DNA from: Solirubrobacterales bacterium
Lineage (GTDB): Bacteria > Actinomycetota > Thermoleophilia > Solirubrobacterales > 70-9
Assembly: GCA_044865945.1 (NCBI GenBank)
Contig: JBIOTO010000119.1
Location: forward strand, 1,544-65,543
Length of the DNA stretch: 64,000 nucleotides
Reading direction: 5' to 3'
Shown here: one piece after another, positions 18,409-63,400 of the stretch
How positions within the stretch are numbered: position 1 is the first letter of the stretch
How the letters are laid out: the number at the start of each line of letters is the position of its first letter
Notes under the pieces: model-generated
Database searches by the model: none
Seen by the model: the letters and a program-made list of their open reading frames with translations, nothing else
What the model was told of the DNA's origin: nothing
Made by a program: the position numbers and the translations under genes

Positions 18409-19326
18409 ATGGTCGGCTCGCTGGTGCTCAACCGCTTTTTGATCGAGCGCCGCATAGGTAGCGGCGGCTTCGGCGTTGTCTACGAGGCCTGGGACGGCCG
18501 CCTTGAGCGACCGGTCGCGGTGAAGGCGATCGAACAGCGGGGAGAGGCGGGCCGCCGAGTCCTGCGCGAGGCCCAGGCCGCGGCGCGGCTCAACCACCCC
18601 GGCATCGTCACCCTCTACGAGATGGGGGAGGAGGACGGCAATGCCCTGCTCGTCACCGAGCTGGTCGAGGGTTCGACCCTGGCCCGCCTCGCCAGCGAAG
18701 GCGATCTCTCCGACCGCGAGATCGGCGAGATCGGCGCCGACCTCTGCGAGGCGCTCGACCACGCCCACTCCCGCGGCGTCGTCCACCGCGACATCAAGCC
18801 CCGGAACGTGCAGGTGATCGAGGACGGCGAACCCCGCGCGAAGCTGATGGACTTCGGCGTCGCCCACCTGGCCGACGCGGCGGCCCTGACCGCCGCCGGC
18901 GACGTGGTCGGCACCCTCGCCTACATGTCGCCCGAGCAGGCGGAGGGACGGCCCGCCGGGCCCGAGGCCGACGTCTACTCGCTGGCCCTGACCCTGTACG
19001 AGTGCTGGAGCGGCGAGAACCCGCACCGCCGCGCCACCCCCGCCGCCACCGCGCGGGCGATCGGCGGCCGCCACCGCGCGCTGCGCCGGCTCCGCCCCGA
19101 CCTGCCCCGCGAGCTGGCCGACACCGTCGACGCCTGCCTCTCGCCCCGCCCCAACCACCGCCTCTCGCTGGAGGAGCTGGGCTCGGCGATCGAGGACTCG
19201 CTGGACGATCTCAGCGACCACCTGCCCGGCGCCTACGGCCGCGGTTTCGTCACCCGGGTCGGCGCTCTCGCCGCCGCCGCGACCGTCGGGGGGATCCTCG
19301 CCCTGCACGGTGCGGCCCTGCCGTAG
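18409..19326 (+). CDS. Ser/Thr protein kinase, kinase domain plus short hydrophobic C-terminal tail (PknA-like)
   Basis: All catalytic motifs are intact: IGSGGFGVVY, VAVKAI, HRDIKPRN, DFG and GTLAYMSPE. Confidence 0.85.
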   Translation: MVGSLVLNRFLIERRIGSGGFGVVYEAWDGRLERPVAVKAIEQRGEAGRRVLREAQAAARLNHPGIVTLYEMGEEDGNALLVTELVEGSTLARLASEGDLSDREIGEIGADLCEALDHAHSRGVVHRDIKPRNVQVIEDGEPRAKLMDFGVAHLADAAALTAAGDVVGTLAYMSPEQAEGRPAGPEADVYSLALTLYECWSGENPHRRATPAATARAIGGRHRALRRLRPDLPRELADTVDACLSPRPNHRLSLEELGSAIEDSLDDLSDHLPGAYGRGFVTRVGALAAAATVGGILALHGAALP

Positions 19327-24631: not shown

Positions 24632-26479
24632 GTGGCTGAGGTCAGCGAGGGAAGCATCGTCGACAACCGCTACCGGGTCCTGCGCCGGATCGGCGGTGGT
24701 GGCATGGCCGACGTCTGGCTGGCCGAGGACACGCACCTGCAGCGGCAGGTGGCGCTGAAGGTCCTCCACCGACGCTTTCTCCAGGATCCCGAGTTCGTCG
24801 GTCGCTTCCAGCGCGAGGCCGAGCACGCGGCCGGGCTGACGCACCCGAACATCGTCGCCGTCTACGACCGCGGCTCCGACGGCGACGTCAACTACATCGC
24901 GATGCGCTACGTCCAGGGCCCGACCCTGAAGGAGCTGATCGACCGCGGCCTCAGCCCCGACCAGGCGGTGGCGCTGGTGCGCCAGGTGCTGGAGGGAGCG
25001 CGGTTCGCCCACCGCAACGGGATCGTCCACCGCGACCTGAAGCCGCAGAACGTGATCGTCGACGAAGAGGGTAAGGCGGTCGTCACCGACTTCGGCATCG
25101 CCCGCGCCGGGGTCTCGGAGATCACCCAGACCGGCTCGGTGATGGGCACCCCGCAGTACCTCTCGCCCGAGCAGGCGCAGGGCTTCGAAGTGACCCCGGT
25201 CTCCGACCTCTACTCGATCGGGGTGATCCTCTACGAGGCGCTGACCCGCCGCGTCCCGTTCGAAGCCGACAGCGCCGTGGCGATCGCGATGAAACAGGTC
25301 GCCGAGACGCCGATGCGGCCGAGCTCGATCAACCCGCAGGTCTCGCCGGCGCTCGACGCGGTGGTGATGCGGGCGCTGGAGAAGGAACCGGGCCAGCGCT
25401 TCCAGAGCGCCGACGCCTTCATCGCCGCCCTCGACGCGGCGCTGAAAGACCCCGGGGTGGCGCAGGGCACGGCGGCCTTCGCGACGGTCGCCCCGGTCGC
25501 CGAGGAGGAGGGGCCGCTGGAAGACCGCAAACGCAACTGGTGGCTCTGGGGGGCGCTGGTCGCGGCGATCCTGATCGGCCTGCTGATCGGCTGGGCGCTG
25601 AGCCGCGACACCACCACCGACGTCCCCAACGTCACCAACAAGCAGGTCGAATTCGCGATCGCCCAGCTCGAACGCAAGGGCTTCGACGTCGGCGAGGAAA
25701 AGTACGTCAACCGCGCGGTTCCCCGGAACACCGTGCTTGAGCAGGACCCGCTGCCTGGCTCGGCCGACGAAGACTGCTCCTTCCTCACCTTCTTCTGCTC
25801 GAAGCCGAGCGTCGACCTGACGATCAGCGCTGGGCCGGGCAGCGGCGAAGTGCCCTCGACCGCCGGGCTGAGCCAGGAAGAGGCGAGCGAAAAACTCGAA
25901 GAGGCGGGCTTCGAAGCCGGCGTCGAACGGGTCAACTCGAAGACGGTCGAGGAAGGGCTGGTGATCCGCTCCGAACCCGGCGGCGGCACCACGGCGACCA
26001 AAGGGTCGACGGTGACCCTGTTCGTCTCGCGCGGCCCGAAGCTGACCAAGGTGCCGGCTCTGGTCGGCAGCCAGCGCGGCGCCGCGGTCGAACGGCTGCG
26101 CGGCCGCGGCCTCGAACCAAGCGTCTCCGAAGAAGAAAGCTCCTCGCCCAAAGGCCAGGTCGTCAGCCAGTCGCCCGACGCCGGCAGCGAAGTCGAAGCG
26201 GGCTCGACCGTCGCGATCGTCGTCTCCAGCGGTGAAAAGGAGGAAACGGCCAAGGTCCCGAACGTGATCGGCAAGGAACGTCGCGAAGCGGTCGAACTTG
26301 TCCGCGGCGCCGGCCTCACCCCCAGCGTCGAAGAAGAAGAAACCGAAGTGCCGGGTCAGGTCGGGCGGGTGATCGACCAATTCCCGCCGCCGGGCAGCGA
26401 AGGCGAACCGGGCGACACGGTGACGATCACGGTCGGCAAGCGCGCCGCGGCCGCGCCGGAAGAAGGCCCCGAAGAATGA
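24632..26479 (+). CDS. pknB: PASTA-domain Ser/Thr protein kinase PknB
   Basis: It has a kinase domain (GGGGMADVW, VALKVL, HRDLKPQN, DFG, GTPQYLSPE), one TM segment and four PASTA repeats. A GGAGG Shine-Dalgarno sequence precedes the GTG start. Confidence 0.9.
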   Translation: MAEVSEGSIVDNRYRVLRRIGGGGMADVWLAEDTHLQRQVALKVLHRRFLQDPEFVGRFQREAEHAAGLTHPNIVAVYDRGSDGDVNYIAMRYVQGPTLKELIDRGLSPDQAVALVRQVLEGARFAHRNGIVHRDLKPQNVIVDEEGKAVVTDFGIARAGVSEITQTGSVMGTPQYLSPEQAQGFEVTPVSDLYSIGVILYEALTRRVPFEADSAVAIAMKQVAETPMRPSSINPQVSPALDAVVMRALEKEPGQRFQSADAFIAALDAALKDPGVAQGTAAFATVAPVAEEEGPLEDRKRNWWLWGALVAAILIGLLIGWALSRDTTTDVPNVTNKQVEFAIAQLERKGFDVGEEKYVNRAVPRNTVLEQDPLPGSADEDCSFLTFFCSKPSVDLTISAGPGSGEVPSTAGLSQEEASEKLEEAGFEAGVERVNSKTVEEGLVIRSEPGGGTTATKGSTVTLFVSRGPKLTKVPALVGSQRGAAVERLRGRGLEPSVSEEESSSPKGQVVSQSPDAGSEVEAGSTVAIVVSSGEKEETAKVPNVIGKERREAVELVRGAGLTPSVEEEETEVPGQVGRVIDQFPPPGSEGEPGDTVTITVGKRAAAAPEEGPEE

Positions 26480-36343: not shown

Positions 36344-37867
36344 TCAGTCGATCACCTTCACGTCGCTGATCTCGATCCGGTAGCGCCCTTCCTGATCGCG
36401 GGAAGGGGCCGCCTTGGTAAACCAGATTAGGAAGTACTTCGCCGGCGAGCCGAGGTGGAGCTCGACCTCCTCGACCTCCCCGGCGTCGGTCACCTCGCCG
36501 ACCGGTTCGCCCCATTCGGACAGTTCTTCCGGCGGGCCGGCGGGGGCGGCGTAGATTTCGGCGTCCCAGCCGGGGGCGCCGCGGATGATCATCTCCTTCG
36601 GGGTCGCCGTCGCCTTGGTCACCACGTAGAGGCCGACGCCGGGGTTGGGACCGGTCTTGGTGCCGGCGAATTCGGTGTCGTCGTAGTGCTCGCTGCTCCA
36701 GGCGGTCCCGGTCGGGTTGCCGTCGACCGCCAGGCTGACCGCTTCGGGGTCCTCTTCGCCATCGCCCTGCGGGTCGTAATCCGAGGCTTCGGCAAGCGGC
36801 AGCGGCGAGCCCTTGTCGCTCAGCGCGCCACCCCCACCACCGGGCCCGTTGCCGCTGCTGATCAGGATCACCGCCGCCACCGCGCCGGCGAAGGCCAGCA
36901 CCAGCAGCGCCAGCCATAGGCGCGACCAGCGGCCGCCGCTGGAGAGCTTGCGCTCCGCCGGCGGCACCGCCTCCAGCACGCTCGTCGCCTCGCCGGTGGT
37001 CGACCCCGCCCGTGCCGCCTCGACCTCCAGGGCGGTCGCCAGGTCGTCGATCATCTCGCCGACCTGCTGGTAGCGCCGCGCCGGATCCTTCGCGGTGGCC
37101 CGCTCGACCACCATCGCTGCCGCCGCCGAGAGTTCGGGCCGCCGCTGCTGGACGTCGGGCAGCTCTTCGTTGACGTGTTTCATCGCCACCCCGACCTGGC
37201 TGTCGGCGCTGAACGGGACCCCGCCGGTCAGCATCTCGTAGAGGACGACGCCGAGCGAGTAGACGTCGGAGCGCTGGTCGACCGCGTGGCCCATCGCCTG
37301 CTCGGGGGAGACGTAGTCGGTGGTGCCGAGCACGCGGCCGGTGGCGGTCATCCCATCCTGTTCGAGCTGGCGGGAGATGCCGAAGTCGGTCAGCTTCGCC
37401 CGCCCCTCGGCGTCGATCAGAACGTTCTGCGGCTTGATGTCGCGGTGGACCATGTTGCGGGCGTGGGCGACGGTCAGGCCGCGGGCGATCTCGATCGCGT
37501 AGGCGAGCGCCTCCTGGGCGTCGAGCGCGCCGACCCGGTTGATCCGCTGCTTCAGGGTCTCGCCTTCGACGTATTCGAAGACGATGTAGGGGTGGCCGCC
37601 GTCCTCGCCGGCGTCGATCACGGCGACGACGTTGGGGTGCGAGATCTTCGCGACCGCCCGCGCCTCCTGGCGGAAGCGCTCGAGCTGGTCGGCCTGCTCG
37701 GACATCTCGCGGTGCATCACCTTCACCGCCACGGCCCGGTCCAGGGTGGTGTCGCGGGCCAGGTAGACGGTCGACATGCCGCCGCTGCCAAGCTTCGCCT
37801 CCAGCTTGTAACGGCCGGAGAGCACGGTGCCGATCATCTGGGAGCTGGTCGGGGGGCGGTCGCTCAC
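36344..37867 (-). CDS. Ser/Thr protein kinase with one TM and an extracellular beta-sandwich-like sensor domain
   Basis: The catalytic motifs are intact: LGSGGMSTVY, VAVKVM, HRDIKPQN, DFG and GTTDYVSPE. The start is either the GTG at 37867 or the ATG at 37837. Confidence 0.85.
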   Translation of the reverse strand: MSDRPPTSSQMIGTVLSGRYKLEAKLGSGGMSTVYLARDTTLDRAVAVKVMHREMSEQADQLERFRQEARAVAKISHPNVVAVIDAGEDGGHPYIVFEYVEGETLKQRINRVGALDAQEALAYAIEIARGLTVAHARNMVHRDIKPQNVLIDAEGRAKLTDFGISRQLEQDGMTATGRVLGTTDYVSPEQAMGHAVDQRSDVYSLGVVLYEMLTGGVPFSADSQVGVAMKHVNEELPDVQQRRPELSAAAAMVVERATAKDPARRYQQVGEMIDDLATALEVEAARAGSTTGEATSVLEAVPPAERKLSSGGRWSRLWLALLVLAFAGAVAAVILISSGNGPGGGGGALSDKGSPLPLAEASDYDPQGDGEEDPEAVSLAVDGNPTGTAWSSEHYDDTEFAGTKTGPNPGVGLYVVTKATATPKEMIIRGAPGWDAEIYAAPAGPPEELSEWGEPVGEVTDAGEVEEVELHLGSPAKYFLIWFTKAAPSRDQEGRYRIEISDVKVID

Positions 37868-43093: not shown

Positions 43094-43550
43094 TTCCCGC
43101 GCTCCCGCGATCGTCTTCGCGCTCCTCGTCCTCGCGACGCTAGCCGCCTTCGCCTACGCCCAAAGGGTCAAGCGCGATCCGCTCGTCCTCGACCGCGTCA
43201 GCTTCATCGGCGCGCCGCGAGACAAGGGTCAGCCGGTCGTCCACGCCTTCACCCCGAACCGGGACTGCCGTCTCGACCTGATGCGGATCCGCTTCCGCAC
43301 CACCGTCTCCGGCAACGGAGTGGTCCAGGTGATCAAGCCCGGCGGCCGCGTCGTCTACACGCTGGCGCGAGACGAATTCCTCAAGCGCTACACGTTCCAC
43401 ACCTACTACTGGGACGGGCGGCAGCGGGGCGGCGGCACCGCTCATCCGGGTCGCTACAAGCTGCGGGTCAAATTCGACGGTCGCACCCTCGTGACCCCGG
43501 GCGTGATCCGCCTCCATCCGGCGCCGAAGGACGGCGAGCGCAAATGCTGA
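43074..43550 (+). CDS. membrane-anchored hypothetical protein (Ig-like beta-rich ectodomain?)
   Basis: It has one TM segment (AIVFALLVLATLAAFAYA) and I recognise no family. The start is ambiguous (43056, 43074 or 43086). Confidence 0.45.
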   Translation: MPKRLNDSRAPAIVFALLVLATLAAFAYAQRVKRDPLVLDRVSFIGAPRDKGQPVVHAFTPNRDCRLDLMRIRFRTTVSGNGVVQVIKPGGRVVYTLARDEFLKRYTFHTYYWDGRQRGGGTAHPGRYKLRVKFDGRTLVTPGVIRLHPAPKDGERKC

Positions 43551-45079
43551 GTGACGTCCTCGCCGGACTCGGCCTCGTCGTCGCGGCAAGCGCCAGCGGC
43601 GCCGCGATCCTGCTGCCCCCCGGCCGCCCGCGCGGCGCCGCGATGGTCCTGGCGATGGTCCTCTTCCCGGTCCTGATCGCCGGCGACCAGTGGCACACGA
43701 CCCAGATCGTCGACCTGCGCCACGACGAGGGGAGGATCGCCGCCCTGCTGGCGATCGCCGCGGTCGCGATCGGCTCCCTCACCTACGTCTTCCGCCGCTG
43801 GCCGATCCTGATGCCGCTGGCGATCATCGCCGCCCTGCCGTTCCGGGTTCCGCTCGAGGCGGGCGGCGACACGGCCAACCTGCTGGTCCCGCTCTACCTG
43901 GTGATCGCGGCGGCGGTCCTGGCCACGGTTCTGCGCGACTGGAACGACCCACCGGCCGTCCACCCGCCGCGGGCGCTGGCCTGGATCCTCGCCGCCGCGG
44001 TGGTCCTCTACGCCCTGCAGACGCTCTACTCGGAGGACTTCTCGAAGGGCCTGCAGAACGTCTGCTTCTTCTTCATCCCCTTCACCGTCGCCTACCGGCT
44101 GCTGCGCGAGGTGGAGTGGGACCGGCGCCTGTTGACCTGGGCGATGGTGCTGCTGGGGATCGAGGCGAGCCTGTTCGTCCTCGTCGGCACGGTCGAGCTG
44201 GCGACCCGCGGCCTCTTCTGGAACGACCAGATCATCCGCTCGAACGAATTCCACACCTACTTCCGCGTCAACTCGGTCTTCTGGGATCCGAACGTCTACG
44301 GGCGCTACCTGGCCCTGACCGCGGTCCTGGCCACGGCGGCAATGCTCTGGGCGCGAACCCGGAGCAACTTCTGGTTGCTCTCCGGCCTGCTCGGCGTGCT
44401 CTGGTTCGGGCTGGTCACGACCTACTCGCAGTCGAGCTTCCTCGCCCTCCTCGCCGGGCTGGCGATGCTGGCGGCGATCCGCTGGAGCTGGCGCTGGACC
44501 CTGGTCGCGGTCGCGGTGGGGACGGTTGGCGCTGCCCTGGTCATCCTCTTCGCAGGCGGCTCGGGAAAGATCACCAGCGACCGCCTCAACGTCGACCTCA
44601 GCGGCCGCGGCAGCCTCGTCTCCGGCGGCCTCGACCTCTTCTCCGAACGACCCCTCTGGGGCTACGGATCAGGCAGCTTCCAAGCCGCCTACCGCGACAA
44701 CCGCGAGAACAAGGATGCACCCGTCATTGTTTCTCACACGGAGCCCGTCACTGTGGCAGCTGAGCAAGGCCTAATAGGACTGCTCATCTACTTCTCTCTG
44801 ATCATCGTTGCGCTCCGAACCCTGGGCGCTGGCCTCTTCCGGCCCCGTCCGGCGGGTGGCGACGATCGGGAGGACTCTCCCGGTAGGGAGAGCCCCCGAT
44901 CGGAGACAGGACCCGCCGGCCACACCGCCCGCGCAGCGTTACTCGCTGCCTTCGTGGCCCTCCTCGTTCACACCCTGTCCTACGCCGGCTTCTTCGAGGA
45001 CCCGATCACCTGGGTGCTCCTGGCTGTGGGTGCCTCTTTGGCGTGGGCTGAGGCGCCGGCGGTCCGCGACCCCGCGTAG
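43544..45079 (+). CDS. O-antigen ligase/polymerase-like (Wzy_C) membrane protein
   Basis: It has more than 10 TM segments and the Wzy_C-type core TYSQSSFLALLAGLAML...PLWGYGSGSF...SHTEPVTVAAEQGLIGLL. Confidence 0.75.
   Translation: MLSDVLAGLGLVVAASASGAAILLPPGRPRGAAMVLAMVLFPVLIAGDQWHTTQIVDLRHDEGRIAALLAIAAVAIGSLTYVFRRWPILMPLAIIAALPFRVPLEAGGDTANLLVPLYLVIAAAVLATVLRDWNDPPAVHPPRALAWILAAAVVLYALQTLYSEDFSKGLQNVCFFFIPFTVAYRLLREVEWDRRLLTWAMVLLGIEASLFVLVGTVELATRGLFWNDQIIRSNEFHTYFRVNSVFWDPNVYGRYLALTAVLATAAMLWARTRSNFWLLSGLLGVLWFGLVTTYSQSSFLALLAGLAMLAAIRWSWRWTLVAVAVGTVGAALVILFAGGSGKITSDRLNVDLSGRGSLVSGGLDLFSERPLWGYGSGSFQAAYRDNRENKDAPVIVSHTEPVTVAAEQGLIGLLIYFSLIIVALRTLGAGLFRPRPAGGDDREDSPGRESPRSETGPAGHTARAALLAAFVALLVHTLSYAGFFEDPITWVLLAVGASLAWAEAPAVRDPA
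44850..44918 (+). repeat. 69-bp hairpin-forming repeat, copy 1, in frame inside the Wzy_C-like gene
   Basis: It is identical at all 69 positions to 48796-48864 (hand alignment) and encodes AGGDDREDSPGRESPRSETGPA. Confidence 0.9.
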
Positions 45080-47568: not shown

Positions 47569-48690
47569 ATGAAGGTGCAACTCGTCGACCCCTCGGCCTT
47601 CACGCCGCCCTACGACCGCGCCCTCGCGGCGGCGCTGGCCCGTGCCGGTATCGAGGTCGAGCTGCTGACTACGAAGTTCCTCTACGGGCCGGTTCCGCCC
47701 GCCGAGGGCTACCGGGTCGATGAGCGCTTCTACCGCCGCTCCGCCGCGCGCGGGCTCGAAGCCCCGGCCCGCCTGCCGTTCAAGGCGCTGGAGCACGTTC
47801 CCGACATGCTCCGCTTCCGCCGCGAGGCCGCGGCCGACGTCGTCCACTACCAGTGGCTGACGATCCCCGCGCTCGACGCGCGCCTGCTGCCGTCGTCGCG
47901 GCCGCGGGTGATGACCGCCCACTACATCCTGCCGCCGCGCGCGAGCCGTCGGCAGGTGCGGAGCGCCCGCCGCGTCTTCGGCGCGATGGACGCCGTCGTC
48001 GCCCACTCCGAGCACAGCGCCGCGCGGCTGCGCGACGAGGTCGGCCTCGACCCGAGCAGGGTCCGCGTCATCCCCCACGGCGCCTTCGACTACCTGACCC
48101 GGCTGCCCGAGGAGAAGCCGCTGCCCGAGGAGCTGGAGGGAGCCGAGGGCCCGGTGGTCCTCTCCTTCGGCCTGCTCCGCCCTTACAAGGGAATCGAGAA
48201 CCTGCTCGACGCCTTCGGGCAGGTTGCCGACACCGACACCGAGCTCTGGGTCGTCGGCAACCCGCGAATGGACGTCGGGCCGCTGCGCCGGCAGGCGGAG
48301 AAAACGGGCGCGCGCGTCCGCTTCGTCAGTCGCTTCGTCGACGACGCCGAGATCCCGGCGATCTTCCGCCGCGCCGACCTCGTCGTCCTCCCCTACCTCG
48401 ACGCCGAGCACTCCGGCGTCCTCTACACCGGCCTCGCCTTCGGCAAGCCGCTGGTCCTCAGCGCGGTCGGCGGCTTCCCCGAGGTGGCCGAGGCCGGCGC
48501 GGCCCGGCTGATCCCGCCGGGAGACACCGACGCCCTCGCAGCGACCCTGTCGGAGCTGGTCGGCGACGAGGCCGCTCGCGCCGAGCTCGCCGCCGCCGCA
48601 TCGCGCGCCGCCGCCGGCCGGTTCTCCTGGGACGAGGCCGCCCGCCGCACCCTCGACCTCTACCGCGAGCTGATCGAGGCGCGCACGTGA
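47569..48690 (+). CDS. family 4 (GT-B, Glycos_transf_1) glycosyltransferase
   Basis: It has the C-terminal motif ...FVSRFVDDAEIPAIFRRADLVVLPYLDAEHSGVLYTGLAFGKPLVLSAVGGFPEV. The start is MKVQLVDPS. Confidence 0.85.
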   Translation: MKVQLVDPSAFTPPYDRALAAALARAGIEVELLTTKFLYGPVPPAEGYRVDERFYRRSAARGLEAPARLPFKALEHVPDMLRFRREAAADVVHYQWLTIPALDARLLPSSRPRVMTAHYILPPRASRRQVRSARRVFGAMDAVVAHSEHSAARLRDEVGLDPSRVRVIPHGAFDYLTRLPEEKPLPEELEGAEGPVVLSFGLLRPYKGIENLLDAFGQVADTDTELWVVGNPRMDVGPLRRQAEKTGARVRFVSRFVDDAEIPAIFRRADLVVLPYLDAEHSGVLYTGLAFGKPLVLSAVGGFPEVAEAGAARLIPPGDTDALAATLSELVGDEAARAELAAAASRAAAGRFSWDEAARRTLDLYRELIEART

Positions 48691-49865
48691 CCACTATCGC
48701 CGCACTCTTTTTCTGGCTCAGCTCTGGCCTGCTCGTCTATACGCACCTGGGCTATCCCCTGACGCTGTGGGTGCTGGTCAAACTGCGACGCCCCTCGGCG
48801 GGTGGCGACGATCGGGAGGACTCTCCCGGTAGGGAGAGCCCCCGATCGGAGACAGGACCCGCCGCCGACCCGCCCACCGTCTCCCTGATCATCCCCGCCT
48901 ACGACGAGCAAGAGGTGATCGCCGCCAAAGTAGCCAACGCGCTCGCGCTCGACTATCCGCGCGAGCGCCTGCAGATCGTCGTCGCCTCCGACGGCTCCTC
49001 CGACGCGACCGCCGAGCGCGCCCGCGCCGCCGGCGCCGACCTCGTCCTCGAGCTGCCGCCCGGCGGCAAGGTCGCCGCCCTCAACGCCGCCGCCGAGCAG
49101 GCGAGCGGCGAGCTCCTCGCCTTCTCCGACGCCAACAGCGCCTGGGCGCCCGACGCCCTGCGCCGGCTCGTCGCCCCCTTCGCCGACCCGGCGGTCGGCT
49201 ACGTCTGCGGCCAGGTCCGCTTCCTCGACCCCGGCGGCGGCAACCTCGAGGGGGCCTACTGGCGCTACGAGATGGCGGTGCGGGGGATGGAGTCGGCGCT
49301 GGCCGGGGTCACCGCCGGCAATGGCGCCATCTACGCGGTCCGTCGCGAGGCCTACATCCCGCTCGCCCCCTCCGGCAGCCACGACCTCAGCTTCCCCTTC
49401 GCCTTCGCCAAGCGCGGCCTGCGTTCGCTCTACGCGCCGGCGGCCCGGGCCGAGGAGAAGATGGTCCCCACGCTGGAGGGGGAGTTCGCCCGCAAACGGC
49501 GGATGATGGTCGGCCTCTGGGACATCGTCGTCGGCGAGGGGATGGTCTCCCCGCGCGGCTATCCGCCGCTCTTCGCCTTCGAGATCTCCTCCCATCGCCT
49601 GCTCCGCTACCTCAGCCCGCTGCTGCACCTCGTCGCGCTGGTCGCCAACGCCTTCCTTCTCGGCGATGGCTGGCTCTACACCGTCACCTTCATCCTCCAG
49701 CTCGCTCTGATCGCAGCCGCGCTGCTCGGACGGGTCCTGCCGATCGCCCCATTCCGCATCGCCCGCTACTACGTGATGACCACCGCCTCGATCGGCGCCG
49801 GCCTCTGGGACCGCTGGCGCCGGGGAGCAACCGGGCGCTGGGAGAAGGCGGAGGGCACGCGCTGA
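48687..49865 (+). CDS. membrane-associated family 2 glycosyltransferase
   Basis: It has an N-terminal TM segment, VSLIIPAYDEQEVI, VVASDGSSD, FSDANS and C-terminal TM helices. Its GTG start overlaps the upstream stop (GTGA). Confidence 0.85.
   Translation: MTTIAALFFWLSSGLLVYTHLGYPLTLWVLVKLRRPSAGGDDREDSPGRESPRSETGPAADPPTVSLIIPAYDEQEVIAAKVANALALDYPRERLQIVVASDGSSDATAERARAAGADLVLELPPGGKVAALNAAAEQASGELLAFSDANSAWAPDALRRLVAPFADPAVGYVCGQVRFLDPGGGNLEGAYWRYEMAVRGMESALAGVTAGNGAIYAVRREAYIPLAPSGSHDLSFPFAFAKRGLRSLYAPAARAEEKMVPTLEGEFARKRRMMVGLWDIVVGEGMVSPRGYPPLFAFEISSHRLLRYLSPLLHLVALVANAFLLGDGWLYTVTFILQLALIAAALLGRVLPIAPFRIARYYVMTTASIGAGLWDRWRRGATGRWEKAEGTR
48796..48864 (+). repeat. 69-bp hairpin-forming repeat, copy 2, in frame inside the GT2 gene
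   Basis: It is identical to 44850-44918, in the same orientation and the same codon phase. Confidence 0.9.
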
Positions 49866-60492: not shown

Positions 60493-63400
60493 ATGTACGT
60501 CGAGCTGCACGCCCACTCCGCCTTCTCCTTCCTCGACGGCGCTTCGGCCCCGATGGAGTTGGCCGCCGCCGCGGCTGCCCAGGGCTATCCCGCCTTCGCC
60601 CTCACCGACCACGACGGCGTCTGGGGCTCGATGGAGTTCGCCCACGCCTGCAAGGGCTTCGGCGTGCGCCCGATCACCGGTGCCGAGCTGACGGTCCGCG
60701 AAGGGGAGCGCCACTTCCACCTGACTCTGCTGGTGGAAGACGAGACCGGCTACCGGAACTTGTGCAGGTTGCTGACTCTGGCTCATGCGCATACGAGGGA
60801 CAACACCGCCCGCACCCAGACCCAGCCGTGGGCGACCTTGGATCAGGTCGAGGAGCACGCCGCGGGCCTTGTCTGTCTCTCGGGATGCGCCCGCGACGGC
60901 ATCGCGGCGGGTGCCTTCGAACGTGGCGACACCGTCACCGGCGAGCGGCTTGCTCGGCGGCTGCTCGGCGCGTTCGGGCGCGACCGCTTCCGGATCGAGC
61001 TGCAGCGGCCCTACTGGCGCCGCGACCGCGCCCGCAACCGCTGGCTGGCGCTGCTCGCCGATCGCCTCGACGTGCCCCGCGTCGCCACCGGCAACGTCCA
61101 CTGCCACGACCGCCGCCGGGCGCCGCTACAGGACGCGCTGGTCGCGATCGGCCTCGGCGAGACGCTGGAGGAGTCCGAGCCGAGCCGCCGCGGCAACTCG
61201 ACCTCGGCCCTGACCTCGCCGGCGGCGATGGCGGCGCGCTTCGCCGAATACCCGGAGGCGGTGGCCGAGACCGAGCGGCTGGCCGAGCGCCTCCGCTTCG
61301 ACCTCACCGAGCAGCTCGGCTACCGCTACCCCGGCGACGACGACGCGGGCGCCGACGCCGAGCTCGCCCGCGTCTGCAACCACCGGCTCGGCGAGCGCTA
61401 CGCCGGCAGCTCCCGCCTGCTCGAAGCGCAGTGGCGGCTGGAGGAGGAGCTGGCGATCATCCGCAAGCTCGGCCTCTCCGGCTTCTTCCTCCTCCACCGG
61501 GACCTGCTCGAGCTGGCGCGCGAGGTGGCGGCCGAGGTGCGCGGGCCGGAGTCGGCCCGCCGCTTCCTGCCGCCCGCCCGAGGCCGGGGATCGAGCGTCA
61601 GCACGATCGTCTGCTTCCTCACCGGCCTGGGGATCGTCGACCCGGTCGAGGCCGACCTCTTCTCGGGCCGCTTCCTCAACGACGAAACGACGACGCTGCC
61701 GGACATCGACCTCGACTTCCCCCGCGACATCCGCGAGGTCCTGATCCCCCGCGTGCACGAGCGCTACGGTGCCGACCGCTCGGCCCTGGTCGCCGCCTTC
61801 CCCACCTACCGCCCGAAGGGCGCGGTCCGCGACCTCGGCAAGGCGCTCGGTCTGCCGGAGGGAGAGATCGACCGGGTGGCGAAGACGGTCGGCTTCCACG
61901 AGACCGCGAAGGAGATCGAGCGCGACCTGGTCGCCGCGCTCGGTGCCGAGCGGGCCAGGGAGCCGCGCTGGCGCGTGCTGCTGGATCTCACCGGCGAGAT
62001 CATGGGCCTGCCGCGCCACTCCTCCCAGCACCCCGGCGGGATGGTGATCTCGACCCGGCCGCTGATCGACGTCTGCCCGGTCGTCCCAGCCGCGATGGCG
62101 GGTCGCCAGACGGTGCAGTGGGACAAGGACTCCTGCGCCGACGCCGGCTTCCTCAAGATCGACCTGCTGGGGCTGGGGATGCTCTCGGCGGTCGAGCGCT
62201 GCGTCGAGGAGATCGGCCGTGCCCGCGGCGAGCAGCTCGACCTCTCGCGGGTACCGCTTCGAGACGAGGAGACCTTCGAATCGATCCGCGCCGCCGAGAC
62301 CACCGGCGTCTTCCAGATCGAGAGCCGGGCCCAGATGCAGATGCTGCCACGCACCCAGCCGCGCGACATCGACGACGTCGTCGTCCAGGTGGCCCTGGTG
62401 CGCCCGGGCCCAATCCAGGGTGGCGCCATCCACCCCTATATAGAGAGGCGCAAGCTGCGCCGCGAGAACCCGAACTACGAGATCCCCTATCCGCACCCGC
62501 TGCTGGAGCCGGTGCTGGAGGAGACGCTGGGGACGATCGTCTTCCAGGAGCAGGTGATCGAGTCGGTGATGGCCCTGGCCGACTTCAGCTCCGCCGAGGC
62601 GGAGGGGCTGCGGCGGGCGATGAGCCGCAGGCGCTCCGAGGAGGCGGTCCGCGAGCACCACCAGCGCTTCCTCGCCGGGGCGGCCGCCAACGGCGTCTCC
62701 GAGGAGACCGCCGAAGGGGTCTGGGGCCAGATCAAGGGCTTCTCCGGCTACGGCTTTCCGAAGGCGCACTCGGCCGCTTTCGGCCTGCTCGCCTACCAGT
62801 CGGCCTGGCTGCGGGTCCACTACGGCCCCGAGTTCCTCTGCTCGTTGCTGAACGAGCAGCCGATGGGCTTCTACCCGCCCGACTCGCTGGTCCACGAGGC
62901 CCAGCGACGGGGGATCCGGGTGGCGCCGCCGGACGTCAACCGCAGCCGCGCGCTCTGCCACGTCGAAACGCCGCGGTCCGAGGGCGGGGTGCGCGGTGGG
63001 TTGGCGGTGCGGATCGGGCTCGGCTACGTGAAGGGCGTGCGCGAAGAGGAGATGGAGGCGCTGGCGGCCGAGCGCGAACGCGCCGGCCCATATAAGGGGA
63101 TCGCCGAACTGGCGTCCCGTTCCGGCGTCGGCCTGCCGAGCCTCGAACGTCTCGCCTGGGCTGGCGCCCTCGATGACGTCCCGGCGGATTCGGAGGAGGA
63201 CCGCCGCCAGGCGCTCTGGCGCGTCGGCGTCACCGGTGCCGGCCGGATCGCCGGCACCGGCACCCAGCTGGCGCTGCCGATGGAGCCGCCGCCCTCGCCC
63301 GAGCTGGAGCCGCTGGGCGAGTGGGGCAGGATGATCGCCGACTACCGGGCGACCGGGATGACGGTCGCCAAGCACCCGCTGAAGCTGCTCCGCCCCGGCC

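Follow-up and report, generated by a model that had tools for sequence, protein, structure and literature searches.

A dispersed 69-nt palindromic repeat found in frame within genes of Solirubrobacterales bacteria

RESULTS

Two identical inserts in a Wzy-type gene and a glycosyltransferase gene

The analysed DNA is a 64-kb stretch of a Solirubrobacterales genome, hereafter called the window. It contains an exact 69-mer twice, both times on the plus strand and with 0 mismatches. Copy 1 (44850-44918) lies in frame in a plus-strand gene (43544-45079) encoding a 511-aa membrane protein of the Wzy_C/O-antigen-ligase family (PF04932, E = 2.5e-17). Copy 2 (48796-48864) lies in the linker region of a plus-strand gene (48687-49865) encoding a 392-aa family-2 glycosyltransferase (GT2; PF00535/PF13641). 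Both gene calls are those of the source record. In the Wzy-type protein, the Wzy_C domain spans aa 284-417 and the insert occupies aa ~436-458, in a loop between C-terminal hydrophobic TM helices. In the GT2 protein, the insert (aa 37-59) follows the N-terminal hydrophobic TM helix and precedes the GT2 domain, whose start is at aa 62-66. The GTG start codon of the GT2 gene overlaps the stop codon of an upstream GT4 gene (GTGA, 48687-48690). The first base of either copy falls on codon position 2, as (44850-43544) mod 3 = 1 and (48796-48687) mod 3 = 1. Both copies encode the peptide AGGDDREDSPGRESPRSETGPA, which copy 1 presents in the context (P)AGGDDREDSPGRESPRSETGPA(G). The sequence identity between the copies ends sharply, with 0 further shared bases to the left or right. 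The original prediction had described just this arrangement, namely two perfect copies on one strand and in one codon phase, with unrelated flanks and an identical peptide in a Wzy-type and a GT2 protein, and it is confirmed by exact matching, Pfam, gene calls and translation.

There is no third copy in the window at up to 3 mismatches, and a covariance model of the family described below detects no copies over the 64 kb besides these two. None of 100 dinucleotide-preserving shuffles matched the 69-mer, for which the chance expectation is 0. The exact Wzy-type protein of the window is present on 3 contigs, and the same inserts recur at the same sites in dozens of independent metagenome assemblies. 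The two copies are therefore not an assembly artefact, a concern that had been raised when they were first noticed.

A compound hairpin with covarying stems

The unit is a 69-nt compound hairpin of 74% G+C with three helices, paired ends and an asymmetric internal loop. All its parts are given here on the plus strand for copy 1, followed by the equivalent positions in copy 2. An outer stem of 7-8 bp forms the termini, which are terminal inverted repeats; its 5' arm CGGCGGGT (44850-44857; 48796-48803) pairs with the 3' arm ACCCGCCG (44911-44918; 48857-48864). The left motif GGGTGGCGACGAT (44854-44866; 48800-48812) includes TGGCGA as the 5' side of the internal loop and CGAT as the base of the inner hairpin, while the right motif ATCGGAGACAGGACCC (44899-44914; 48845-48860) holds the 3' side of the loop, GAGACAGGA. 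Between the motifs lies a variable inner hairpin, CGGGAGGACTCTCCC-GGTA-GGGAGAGCCCCCG (44867-44898; 48813-48844). The two motifs and the internal-loop bases show no variation among the collected copies, many of these bases being fixed by the pattern used for the scan. This pattern required 9 of the 13 left-motif bases (GGCGACGAT), leaving GGGT free, and 12 of the 16 right-motif bases (ATCGGAGACAGG).

The first 4 nt of the outer stem covary across the family (CGGC/GCCG, CCGC/GCGG, GCGC/GCGC and others), and compensatory changes are seen in pairs 1/69 and 2/68. The subfamilies differ in the sequence of the inner hairpin with its pairing kept. Altogether, 10 of the 21 pairs show compensatory changes. 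The paired cells amount to 97.3%, as compared with 82% in shuffles (0/500 as high) and ~40% in slid controls, and double-change cells number 140 against 42 expected. In the paired columns, G·T outnumbers A·C by 113:5, indicating that one particular strand folds. The plus strand is the better folder in 84 of 88 unique copies, and the window copy scores 90 bits on the plus strand and 24 bits on the minus strand with the covariance model. The predicted folding energy of the window copy is -57.9 kcal/mol as RNA (z -4.8), and its z is -6.0 as DNA.

A dispersed family with a master sequence

We performed a pattern scan on GTDB species-representative genomes and found at least 114 loci of the family, on both strands. 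Among the matches listed, the carriers are nearly all Solirubrobacterales, Thermoleophilaceae or 'uncultured Actinomycetes' MAGs, and several loci may occur in one genome (4 on chromosome OY969925.1 and 5 in SMAG_U535); the source genome of the window is absent from these matches. The 69-mer of the window is the commonest variant of the family, accounting for 12 of the 130 copies among the matches listed, at different sites and in different genomes. Some copies form head-to-head pairs, 42-63 nt apart, and the pairs of copies that were inspected enclose no RAYT (Y1/HUH) candidate. GGGTGGC...GACAGGACCC is also common to a sister family of 78-90 nt, which was detected without requiring GGGTGGC.

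Searching Rfam with the element returned only generic hairpin (miRNA-precursor) matches at E ~1, and a gathering-threshold scan of the window returned nothing but a tRNA at 209-282. The plasmid and phage collections gave no match to the element. No description of it was found in the literature or in Rfam, in agreement with the earlier remark that no equivalent was known from high-GC Actinomycetota-like genomes, and the literature matches to its motifs and peptide were primer coincidences only. At the protein level, a 48-aa concatenated peptide query retrieved only 29 short ORFs, and one match came from an exhaustive HMMER scan in which a 31-aa peptide of the window was the query; such short queries are below the statistical reach of these tools.

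Intergenic copies and in-frame copies in one phase

Intergenic copies make up 69 of 118 (~58%) among the matches listed; many of them are located 9-25 nt from gene 3' ends or between convergent genes. Intragenic copies make up 48 of the 118 (41%), and 47 of these 48 are in phase 1, in which the first base is at codon position 2. The phase-1 copies, in 23 host clusters, comprise 29 in the orientation opposite to the gene and 18 in the same orientation. The skew to 'opposite' is thus 29:18 in coding sequence, and it is 24:5 at gene 3' ends. Gene context was assigned by our own simple codon log-odds gene caller, which was checked on one annotated locus (L001). Two heuristics based on codon-position GC were discarded as predictors of the coding frame, as they were inconsistent and wrong for the GT2 copy of the window.

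Phase 1 is stop-free and hydrophilic in both orientations. Its 23-residue peptide, rich in Gly, Pro, Ser, Asp and Glu, reads AGGDD..SETGPA or, in the other orientation, AGPVSD..SSPPA. The hosts with Pfam domains on either side of the insert are ribosomal proteins S1, S2, S5, S9 and L10, DnaX, DnaE-PHP, NuoC, GrpE, NusA, E2, RibD, ParA, PyrK-PyrD and Lhr. The position within the gene varies among N-terminal tails, C-terminal tails and domain interiors. One phase that is open both ways and encodes such a peptide explains how loops, linkers and tails can retain insertions, even in essential proteins. The idea of a small element tolerated in frame is supported by a palindromic unit with many copies in many genomes, in coding as well as intergenic DNA.

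Filled, empty and altered sites

An unoccupied site exists in the window itself, in the PHP domain of dnaE (60698-60718, plus strand). A family member occupies the orthologous position in L002 and L055; relative to these two, the window and L003 lack exactly 69 nt, and no target bases are duplicated. This filled/empty pair and the two window copies define a minimal unit of 69 nt. They also rule out a unit of ~90-100 nt that would include the conserved ~10-16 nt flanks; these flanks may stem from a preference for certain targets, from DNA transferred along with the element or from an additional weak outer helix.

We compared 120 orthologues at the Wzy loop. Among the 100 that could be anchored, 46 are filled in the same orientation and 11 in the opposite one, 16 have other interiors, 6 are internally deleted in frame and 21 are empty, such as the 488-aa protein of L003. 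Gain of a copy thus leaves no target-site duplication, and loss proceeds by internal deletions. The canonical, subfamily 2 and 78-nt interiors found at the Wzy position share the outer motif P(A/V)GG...TGPAG. The Wzy-site 69-mer of L119 is identical to that of the window, and the same master sequence is reversed at this position in L120. Both orientations are also seen at the RibD site and at one intergenic site. In the pairs that differ in orientation, the 8-12 nt beside the core differ as well, and at the intergenic site the reversal extends to ~10 nt of flank; identity between the genomes in these comparisons is only ~83%.

The GT2 copy occupies the same codon in 84 of the best 120 orthologue clusters (81-93% aa identity). 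No truly empty site was seen in these 120 clusters, and the copy is reversed in 0 of 120 orthologues. Relatives lacking the 23 codons were thus seen at the Wzy site and not at the GT2 site. Four relatives (L047, L056, L118 and L119) have a GT2-site 69-mer identical to that of the window, without even a synonymous change. In contrast, the flanking 300 nt of the loci with the identical 69-mer show only 77-93% identity. The GT2 copy of L002 has 10 changes relative to the window copy, all of them in the interior and matching another subfamily. In other lineages the GT2 linker contains different structured inserts, either another hairpin, of ~60 nt, or D-armless tRNA-like sequences, the latter in both orientations. 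No second copies of these type B, C and D inserts were found by BLAST against all fetched loci.

Flank conservation falls with distance from the core. Over 62 orthologous filled pairs, the core is 87% and the flanks are 84% conserved. Better conservation of the element than of its flanks is therefore true of the GT2 and Wzy sites and not of the family as a whole.

DISCUSSION

This hairpin repeat is previously undescribed; it is of the REP/RPE/MITE-like kind and is seen here for the first time in Actinomycetota. In our judgement, the 69-mers are probably members of a high-copy, dispersed, non-autonomous palindromic family of that kind, specific to Solirubrobacterales/Thermoleophilia. The original prediction had taken the perfect identity of the two window copies as a sign of recent copying. 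This is not supported, given that both sites are filled in relatives as well, between flanks of 76-94% identity, and that this 69-mer ranks as the commonest family variant. The identity of the window copies comes from each matching the master sequence of the family rather than from a recent copying between the two genes. Two genes can thus share a perfectly identical stretch of nucleotides without any recent event. The alternative of only two copies in an ancestral linker is at odds with the at least 114 loci and the empty Wzy orthologues.

Since 2000, palindromic elements lying in frame in essential genes have been known chiefly from Rickettsia. These Rickettsia palindromic elements (RPEs) are palindromic repeats that occur between genes and, with unusual frequency, in frame in unrelated, often essential genes (Ogata et al. 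2000, summarised in PMC10969869 and PMC3733652). The host protein stays intact and gains a conserved peptide in a surface loop. RPEs measure ~100-150 bp and reside in AT-rich obligate intracellular Alphaproteobacteria (PMC10969869, PMC3733652). The present family behaves alike, as had been proposed, with conserved peptides in frame in 23 host clusters and 47 of 48 intragenic copies in one phase. It differs in being a GC-rich compound hairpin of 69 nt (78-90 nt in the sister family) in free-living soil Actinomycetota, in using both orientations of one phase and in often re-using the same loops. The 74% G+C of the element makes homology to RPE-1 to RPE-10 unlikely; the likeness is that of a behavioural class.

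REP/REPIN sequences with RAYT are high-copy covarying hairpins, often just past gene 3' ends and in head-to-head doublets, with occasional copies in coding regions, no target duplication and a 'master sequence' population structure (PMC2817692, PMC3733652). REPs are simple hairpins of 20-40 nt, one end of which bears an unpaired tag, GTAG or CGTC (PMC2817692, PMC3733652), and the phyla listed for either REP superfamily exclude Actinomycetota (PMC3733652). Our family resembles them as a short palindrome with a covarying hairpin, at least 114 dispersed loci, several loci per genome and head-to-head pairs similar to REP doublets. However, it is 69 nt long with an asymmetric internal loop, and its ends are paired without an unpaired terminal GTAG/CGTC tag. 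GTAG is confined to the apical loop GGTAGG of some variants, and GACG, the complement of CGTC, adjoins the inner hairpin and is followed by the paired CGAT. Moreover, REPs are mostly extragenic, whereas 41% of our copies are in coding sequence, with Pfam domains on both sides.

Bacterial MITEs (Correia, ERIC, RUP, Nezha) are small non-autonomous elements with terminal inverted repeats and can form in-frame fusions; target-site duplications are normal for them, and they derive from DDE-type IS with the same ends (PMC10969869). The 7-8 bp outer stem is comparable to their terminal inverted repeats, but the dnaE pair shows no target-site duplication, and outside the 69 nt the window copies have nothing in common. 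Nor did the element match anything in the plasmid or phage collections. Palindrome-associated elements derived from IS200/IS605 rely on strand-specific recognition of ssDNA hairpins and insert without duplication; their left and right ends bear different hairpins, and the insertion point is on the 3' side of a fixed tetra- or pentanucleotide. The folding of one strand and the lack of target duplication are shared with this group.

By analogy with REP-RAYT or IS200/IS605 ends, the element may move as a hairpin of single-stranded DNA on which an enzyme would act in trans, a candidate being the HUH/Y1 type. Recombination between the conserved outer parts could then swap interiors and hold the copies near the master sequence. 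It is possible, if somewhat doubtful, that recombination is the main cause of both spread and uniformity, through gene conversion or cassette exchange via the outer arms (GGGTGGC...GACAGGACCC) and the partly conserved flanks. This would be another mode of propagation of the same family rather than another kind of object. The exchange of interiors within a common outer motif at the Wzy position points in this direction, as do the L002 copy with changes confined to its interior, the zero divergence at the GT2 site amid diverged flanks, the decay of flank conservation away from the core and the absence of target duplication. On the other hand, the conserved arms of only 13-16 nt are shorter than RecA-dependent exchange usually requires, new sites like that in dnaE offer no pre-existing homology, the core is family-wide no better conserved than the flanks (62 pairs), and conversion alone cannot flip the orientation as seen at the Wzy, RibD and intergenic sites.

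A motif that is selected by the host and kept by purifying selection, either as a protein-bound DNA or RNA structure or as an mRNA structure modulating translation or membrane targeting, is an unlikely explanation. It would fit the invariant internal-loop nucleotides, with the above proviso on the scan pattern, and the GT2 site without any nucleotide change in four relatives. The different structured inserts in the GT2 linker of other lineages could also mean that an mRNA structure is selected there. Yet the element occurs in both orientations relative to transcription while G·T-tolerant pairing is confined to one strand. It also occupies unrelated positions within genes and lies between convergent genes, it matched no Rfam family, and close relatives often differ in whether a site is filled, empty or internally deleted. 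We regard as very unlikely an intragenic invertible cassette, in which a recombinase flips the element between its terminal inverted repeats and thereby switches AGGDD..SETGPA and AGPVSD..SSPPA loops. Intragenic invertons have both orientations coexisting in one population and an invertase (bioRxiv 10.1101/2023.03.11.532203). Here too inverted repeats bound an in-frame segment, flipping the 69-nt unit preserves the codon phase, the only phase used is the one open and hydrophilic both ways, and reversed alleles exist at the Wzy, RibD and intergenic sites. However, opposite orientations were observed only in comparisons of diverged genomes (~83% identical), none of the 120 GT2 orthologues has a reversed copy, and the adjoining 8-12 nt differ in every orientation pair, which means that the alleles are not related by a simple inversion of 69 nt. 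In-place inversion is accordingly rejected as a sufficient cause of the opposite orientations. Finally, a protein-level module, a chance-similar low-complexity linker or an assembly artefact is almost certainly wrong. The peptide is indeed of low complexity and located in loops. This reading is already refuted by the intergenic majority, by compensatory nucleotide changes that alter the peptide (R/S, P/A, E/R) with the hairpin kept, and by recurrence across many independent assemblies against a chance expectation of 0; in addition, the opposite orientation encodes a different peptide.

The preferred reading, a dispersed REP/RPE/MITE-like family, leaves a tension. A purely selfish, neutrally decaying insert does not predict an unchanged GT2-site 69-mer in four relatives; with diverged flanks, this requires gene conversion or sequence selection. 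The refilling of the same loops (Wzy, RibD and the intergenic site) by different subfamilies in both orientations needs a strong target preference or in-place exchange. Furthermore, the bias to the 'opposite' orientation is not predicted by the simplest lagging-strand-template expectation for IS200/IS605-like elements. We consider improbable a further reading, in which the family is more than a selfish repeat under passive tolerance. It would then be an actively maintained, exchangeable and invertible cassette, and a dedicated enzyme would read the conserved asymmetric loop of the single-stranded hairpin and repeatedly re-insert, replace or flip the element at the same protein loops. If this were true, the putative enzyme would hold the copies to the master sequence and supply alternative loop peptides to dozens of housekeeping proteins (ribosomal proteins, DnaE, DnaX, NusA, NuoC and cell-envelope enzymes). 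An abundant soil lineage would thus possess an RPE-like system capable of site homing, intragenic inversion or both.

The probable REP/RPE/MITE-like family offers a second, larger natural experiment on in-frame palindromic insertion, in free-living, high-GC and very abundant soil bacteria. Public metagenomes contain many alleles that are filled, empty, reversed or partly deleted, which makes it possible to reconstruct how copies are inserted, replaced and decay. There is also a risk for annotation, as inserts in conserved proteins can be mistaken for lineage-specific signature indels. We also observed that intergenic copies are annotated as 'hypothetical proteins' of 65-76 aa.

Two exact copies of a 69-nt element in the window

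We found two copies of the 69-mer CGGCGGGTGGCGACGATCGGGAGGACTCTCCCGGTAGGGAGAGCCCCCGATCGGAGACAGGACCCGCCG on the plus strand of the window, at 44850-44918 (copy 1) and 48796-48864 (copy 2), with no mismatches. The window (69% G+C) contains no third copy even allowing three mismatches, and none of 100 shuffled sequences matched. Identity between the copies breaks off exactly at each border of the 69 nt. Copy 1 belongs to the gene of a 511-aa Wzy_C protein (43544-45079) and maps between hydrophobic helices of the C-terminal part. Copy 2, in the gene of a 392-aa GT2 glycosyltransferase (48687-49865), begins 109 nt downstream of the GTG start and separates the N-terminal helix from the catalytic domain. 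The first base of each copy is at codon position 2 (hereafter phase 1), and each copy is translated into AGGDDREDSPGRESPRSETGPA. The window sequence agrees in every detail with the original description of an exact pair with these host genes, this placement and a shared codon phase. The GT2 start codon and the TGA stop codon of the GT4 gene upstream share bases in the sequence GTGA (48687-48690), which suggests translational coupling.

A family of structured, dispersed repeats

A scan of one genome per GTDB species with the pattern GGCGACGATN{26,38}ATCGGAGACAGG revealed at least 114 stretches with the element. Essentially all matches listed derive from MAGs assigned to Solirubrobacterales, Thermoleophilaceae or 'uncultured Actinomycetes', and among them single genomes contain several loci, on both strands. 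One match in Accumulibacter lacks the family features and was rejected as a chance hit. No Rfam family matches the element, the plasmid and phage collections gave no match, and its motifs and peptide are absent from the searchable literature. The element is almost always 69 nt long, and most of the remaining lengths are divisible by three (63, 72, 75, 78, 81 and 90 nt). Across the family, weak conservation extends into flanks of about 10-16 nt.

Folding of the 69-mer gives a strong hairpin, both as RNA (-57.9 kcal/mol, z = -4.8) and as DNA (z = -6.0). The 130 copies among the matches listed share the architecture NNNN-GGGTGGCGACGAT-[32-nt variable hairpin]-ATCGGAGACAGGACCC-NNNN, in which the outer four bases at each end covary (CGGC/GCCG, CCGC/GCGG, GCGC/GCGC, GGGC/GCCC and ACGC/GCGT). 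The interiors define two main subfamilies, and the changes that set them apart are compensatory. RNAalifold gives a model of three helices with double changes in 10 of 21 pairs. In the ungapped alignment, pairing holds in 97.3% of the cells, as compared with 82% in shuffles (0 of 500 as high), and this value falls to about 40% when the partners are slid; double-change cells number 140, against 42 expected. Between the helices is an asymmetric internal loop, with TGGCGA as its 5' side and GAGACAGGA as its 3' side. Its bases are constant among the copies collected, many of them being set by the search pattern, and the pattern-free positions GGGT and ACCC are likewise invariant in these copies. 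The pairing is strand-specific: the paired columns contain 113 G·T and 5 A·C, 84 of 88 unique copies have the better fold on the plus strand, and the covariance model scores are 90 bits for the plus strand and 24 bits for the minus strand.

The covariance model also recovered a sister family of 78-90 nt without requiring GGGTGGC...GACAGGACCC. Its members have this motif and the outer stem in common with the 69-nt element, and a different, longer interior (GTCGTAGGGGGGACCCCC...). They were found in loci of related genomes at L064:3618-3695, L057:6181-6258, L073:964-1041, L062:6470-6547, L054:5117-5206, L075:6405-6482, L024:5103-5183 and L019:6943-7023, and also reside inside genes in frame, in phase 1. 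Head-to-head pairs of copies recur with a spacing of 42-63 nt, similar to REP doublets (REPINs). Two such pairs lie inside dnaX, with both members translated in frame (L057:6181-6384 and L073:964-1173), and three are intergenic (L036:291-477, L037:1495-1680 and L054:5117-5317).

One reading phase in unrelated genes

To assign gene context, we trained a codon log-odds gene caller on the annotated source locus and checked it there. Among the matches listed, 69 of 118 copies are intergenic, many of them 9-25 nt past a stop codon or in the gap where two genes converge. Public databases contain many Solirubrobacterales 'hypothetical proteins' of 65-76 aa (P0121-P0148) that are largely the translation of the element; these are probably spurious ORFs over intergenic copies. 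The 48 intragenic copies (29 antisense to the gene, 18 sense) fall into 23 unrelated host clusters, and 47 of the 48 are in the phase of the window copies. Pfam domains flank many inserts on both sides. The hosts include ribosomal proteins S1, S2, S5, S9 and L10, DnaX (up to two copies), DnaE (within the PHP domain), NuoC (the domain split by the insert), GrpE, NusA, RibD, ParA, a PyrK-PyrD fusion, an E2 acyltransferase (in a linker), the Lhr helicase (within the DEAD domain), a radical-SAM protein and an ECF sigma factor. Large and tractable, the family has entered core housekeeping genes in an abundant lineage of soil bacteria.

The phase-1 peptide reads AGGDD...SETGPA in the gene's orientation and AGPVSD...SSPPA in the opposite one. 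Phase 2 in the same orientation contains a TAG, subfamily 2 is closed in phase 0, and from the remaining open frames outside phase 1 come peptides that are Arg-rich or hydrophobic. Only phase 1 is both open and linker-like whichever way the element points. The regularity of phase may be due to selection alone or to a target preference. Orientation is also biased relative to genes: among the matches listed, all 17 intragenic copies of subfamily 2 are opposite to the gene, and copies just past gene 3' ends are antisense to the upstream gene in 24 cases versus sense in 5.

Gain, loss and re-use of sites

The dnaE site is filled in L002 and L055, and empty in the window (60698-60718) and L003. The filled and empty alleles differ by exactly 69 nt with no duplication of host bases. 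Together with the window copies, this pair sets the minimal unit at 69 nt. In L003, the 'empty' sequence (..CGGCGG|CAGAG..) may in turn be a deletion scar.

The Wzy loop is a very dynamic site. Among the best 120 orthologues (76-100% amino acid identity), 46 carry the canonical element in the gene's orientation, 16 the same outer motif with other interiors, including the 78-nt type, and 11 the element in the opposite orientation; 21 are empty, with GGRTDV replacing the insert, six have in-frame internal deletions and 20 are not anchorable. In L120, a locus of a relative whose Wzy gene is 83% identical in nucleotides, the master 69-mer (the commonest variant) is reversed at the same position. 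Orientation also differs at the RibD site (L095 versus L105) and at an intergenic site (L031 versus L033, L051 and L099). These alleles are not simple inversions of 69 nt, because at all three sites the 8-12 bases adjoining the core differ too. The internal deletions, in P0156, P0170, P0172, P0223, P0254 and P0265 and also at L047:5112-5465, have junctions such as PAG|SSPPAG and RAGG|EETGPAR, and the sequences indicate that the element can decay by losing the hairpin interior with the frame retained.

The perfect identity of the window copies had been taken as a sign of recent copying. This does not hold, as both sites are occupied in relatives with diverged flanks. Of the 120 best orthologue clusters of GT2, 84 carry the insert at the same codon, and its 69 nt equal those of the window in L047, L056, L118 and L119, where the 300-nt flanks are just 77-93% identical. 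At the Wzy site, the same is true of L119, with flanks 88-92% identical. Since the window 69-mer is also the commonest family variant (12 of 130 copies among the matches listed, spread over many sites and genomes), the two copies are identical through adherence of both to the master sequence. Family-wide, orthologous copies are 87% conserved and their flanks 84%, with 29 of the 69 positions fixed by ascertainment; the core is no more conserved than the flanks, and thus the stasis at the GT2 site is a local feature. It could be caused by the double constraint of hairpin and protein, by gene conversion or by function.

Possible mechanisms of spread

The element is a dispersed, structured, strand-asymmetric repeat that inserts without target duplication, decays by internal deletion and persists in one reading phase. 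We infer that it would be mobilised as a single-stranded DNA hairpin by a putative trans-acting enzyme, like REP elements with RAYT or the ends of IS200/IS605. This is suggested by stems that conserve structure rather than sequence, the tolerance of G·T but not A·C, activity in either orientation to transcription, the lack of target duplication, and head-to-head doublets resembling REPINs. Copies might also recombine through their conserved outer arms, a plausible further route that would account for the interiors exchanged at one site and for the copies held at the master sequence. A function for the host is less likely, given copies in both orientations, unrelated positions and frequent presence/absence variation, although the GT2 site may have one, given its frozen copy and the other structured inserts at the same position.

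In behaviour, the nearest known case to this putatively mobile hairpin is that of the Rickettsia palindromic elements (PMC10969869, PMC3733652), and the analogy drawn earlier holds, with in-frame copies in unrelated genes. REP/REPIN elements are nearest in anatomy and genomic habits. The 69-nt element departs from the REP definition in size, in the terminal GTAG/CGTC tag and in extragenic location, and from the MITE definition in target duplication. REPs inside coding regions have been reported, with no Actinomycetota among the listed phyla (PMC3733652); a 2024 MITE review does not mention Actinomycetota (PMC10969869), and we found nothing relevant to such repeats in the literature on Thermoleophilia genera. 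We class the element with those small palindromic repeats that are able to sit within genes in frame, as a type new for the phylum and with no searchable sequence relative. The strict single-phase rule and the repeated use of the same loops are notable traits of this family.

Other inserts and repeats

GT2 orthologues without the 69-nt element have other structured inserts in the same linker, all in frame. A different hairpin of about 60 nt (peptide RRFH..EKGGND, -34.9 kcal/mol) is found in 31 of 120 clusters. A D-armless tRNA-like insert is read antisense in two clusters (Rfam tRNA, 27.6 bits), its anticodon loop resembling tRNA-Gly GCC by eye, and a tRNA-like insert is read sense in two others (29.1 bits). 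Examples orthologous to window 48796-48864 are L003:10094-10168, L121:10108-10174 (minus strand) and L122:10110-10169 (plus strand). No second copies of these inserts were found among the loci compared.

Elsewhere in the window, repeats of 100-186 nt with 73-85% identity link 18762-18947, 25005-25305 and 37167-37470, and the motif CACCGCGACATCAAGCC suggests paralogous Ser/Thr protein kinase genes. A tRNA gene on the minus strand at 209-282 (72.3 bits) is the sole Rfam match at the gathering threshold in the window.
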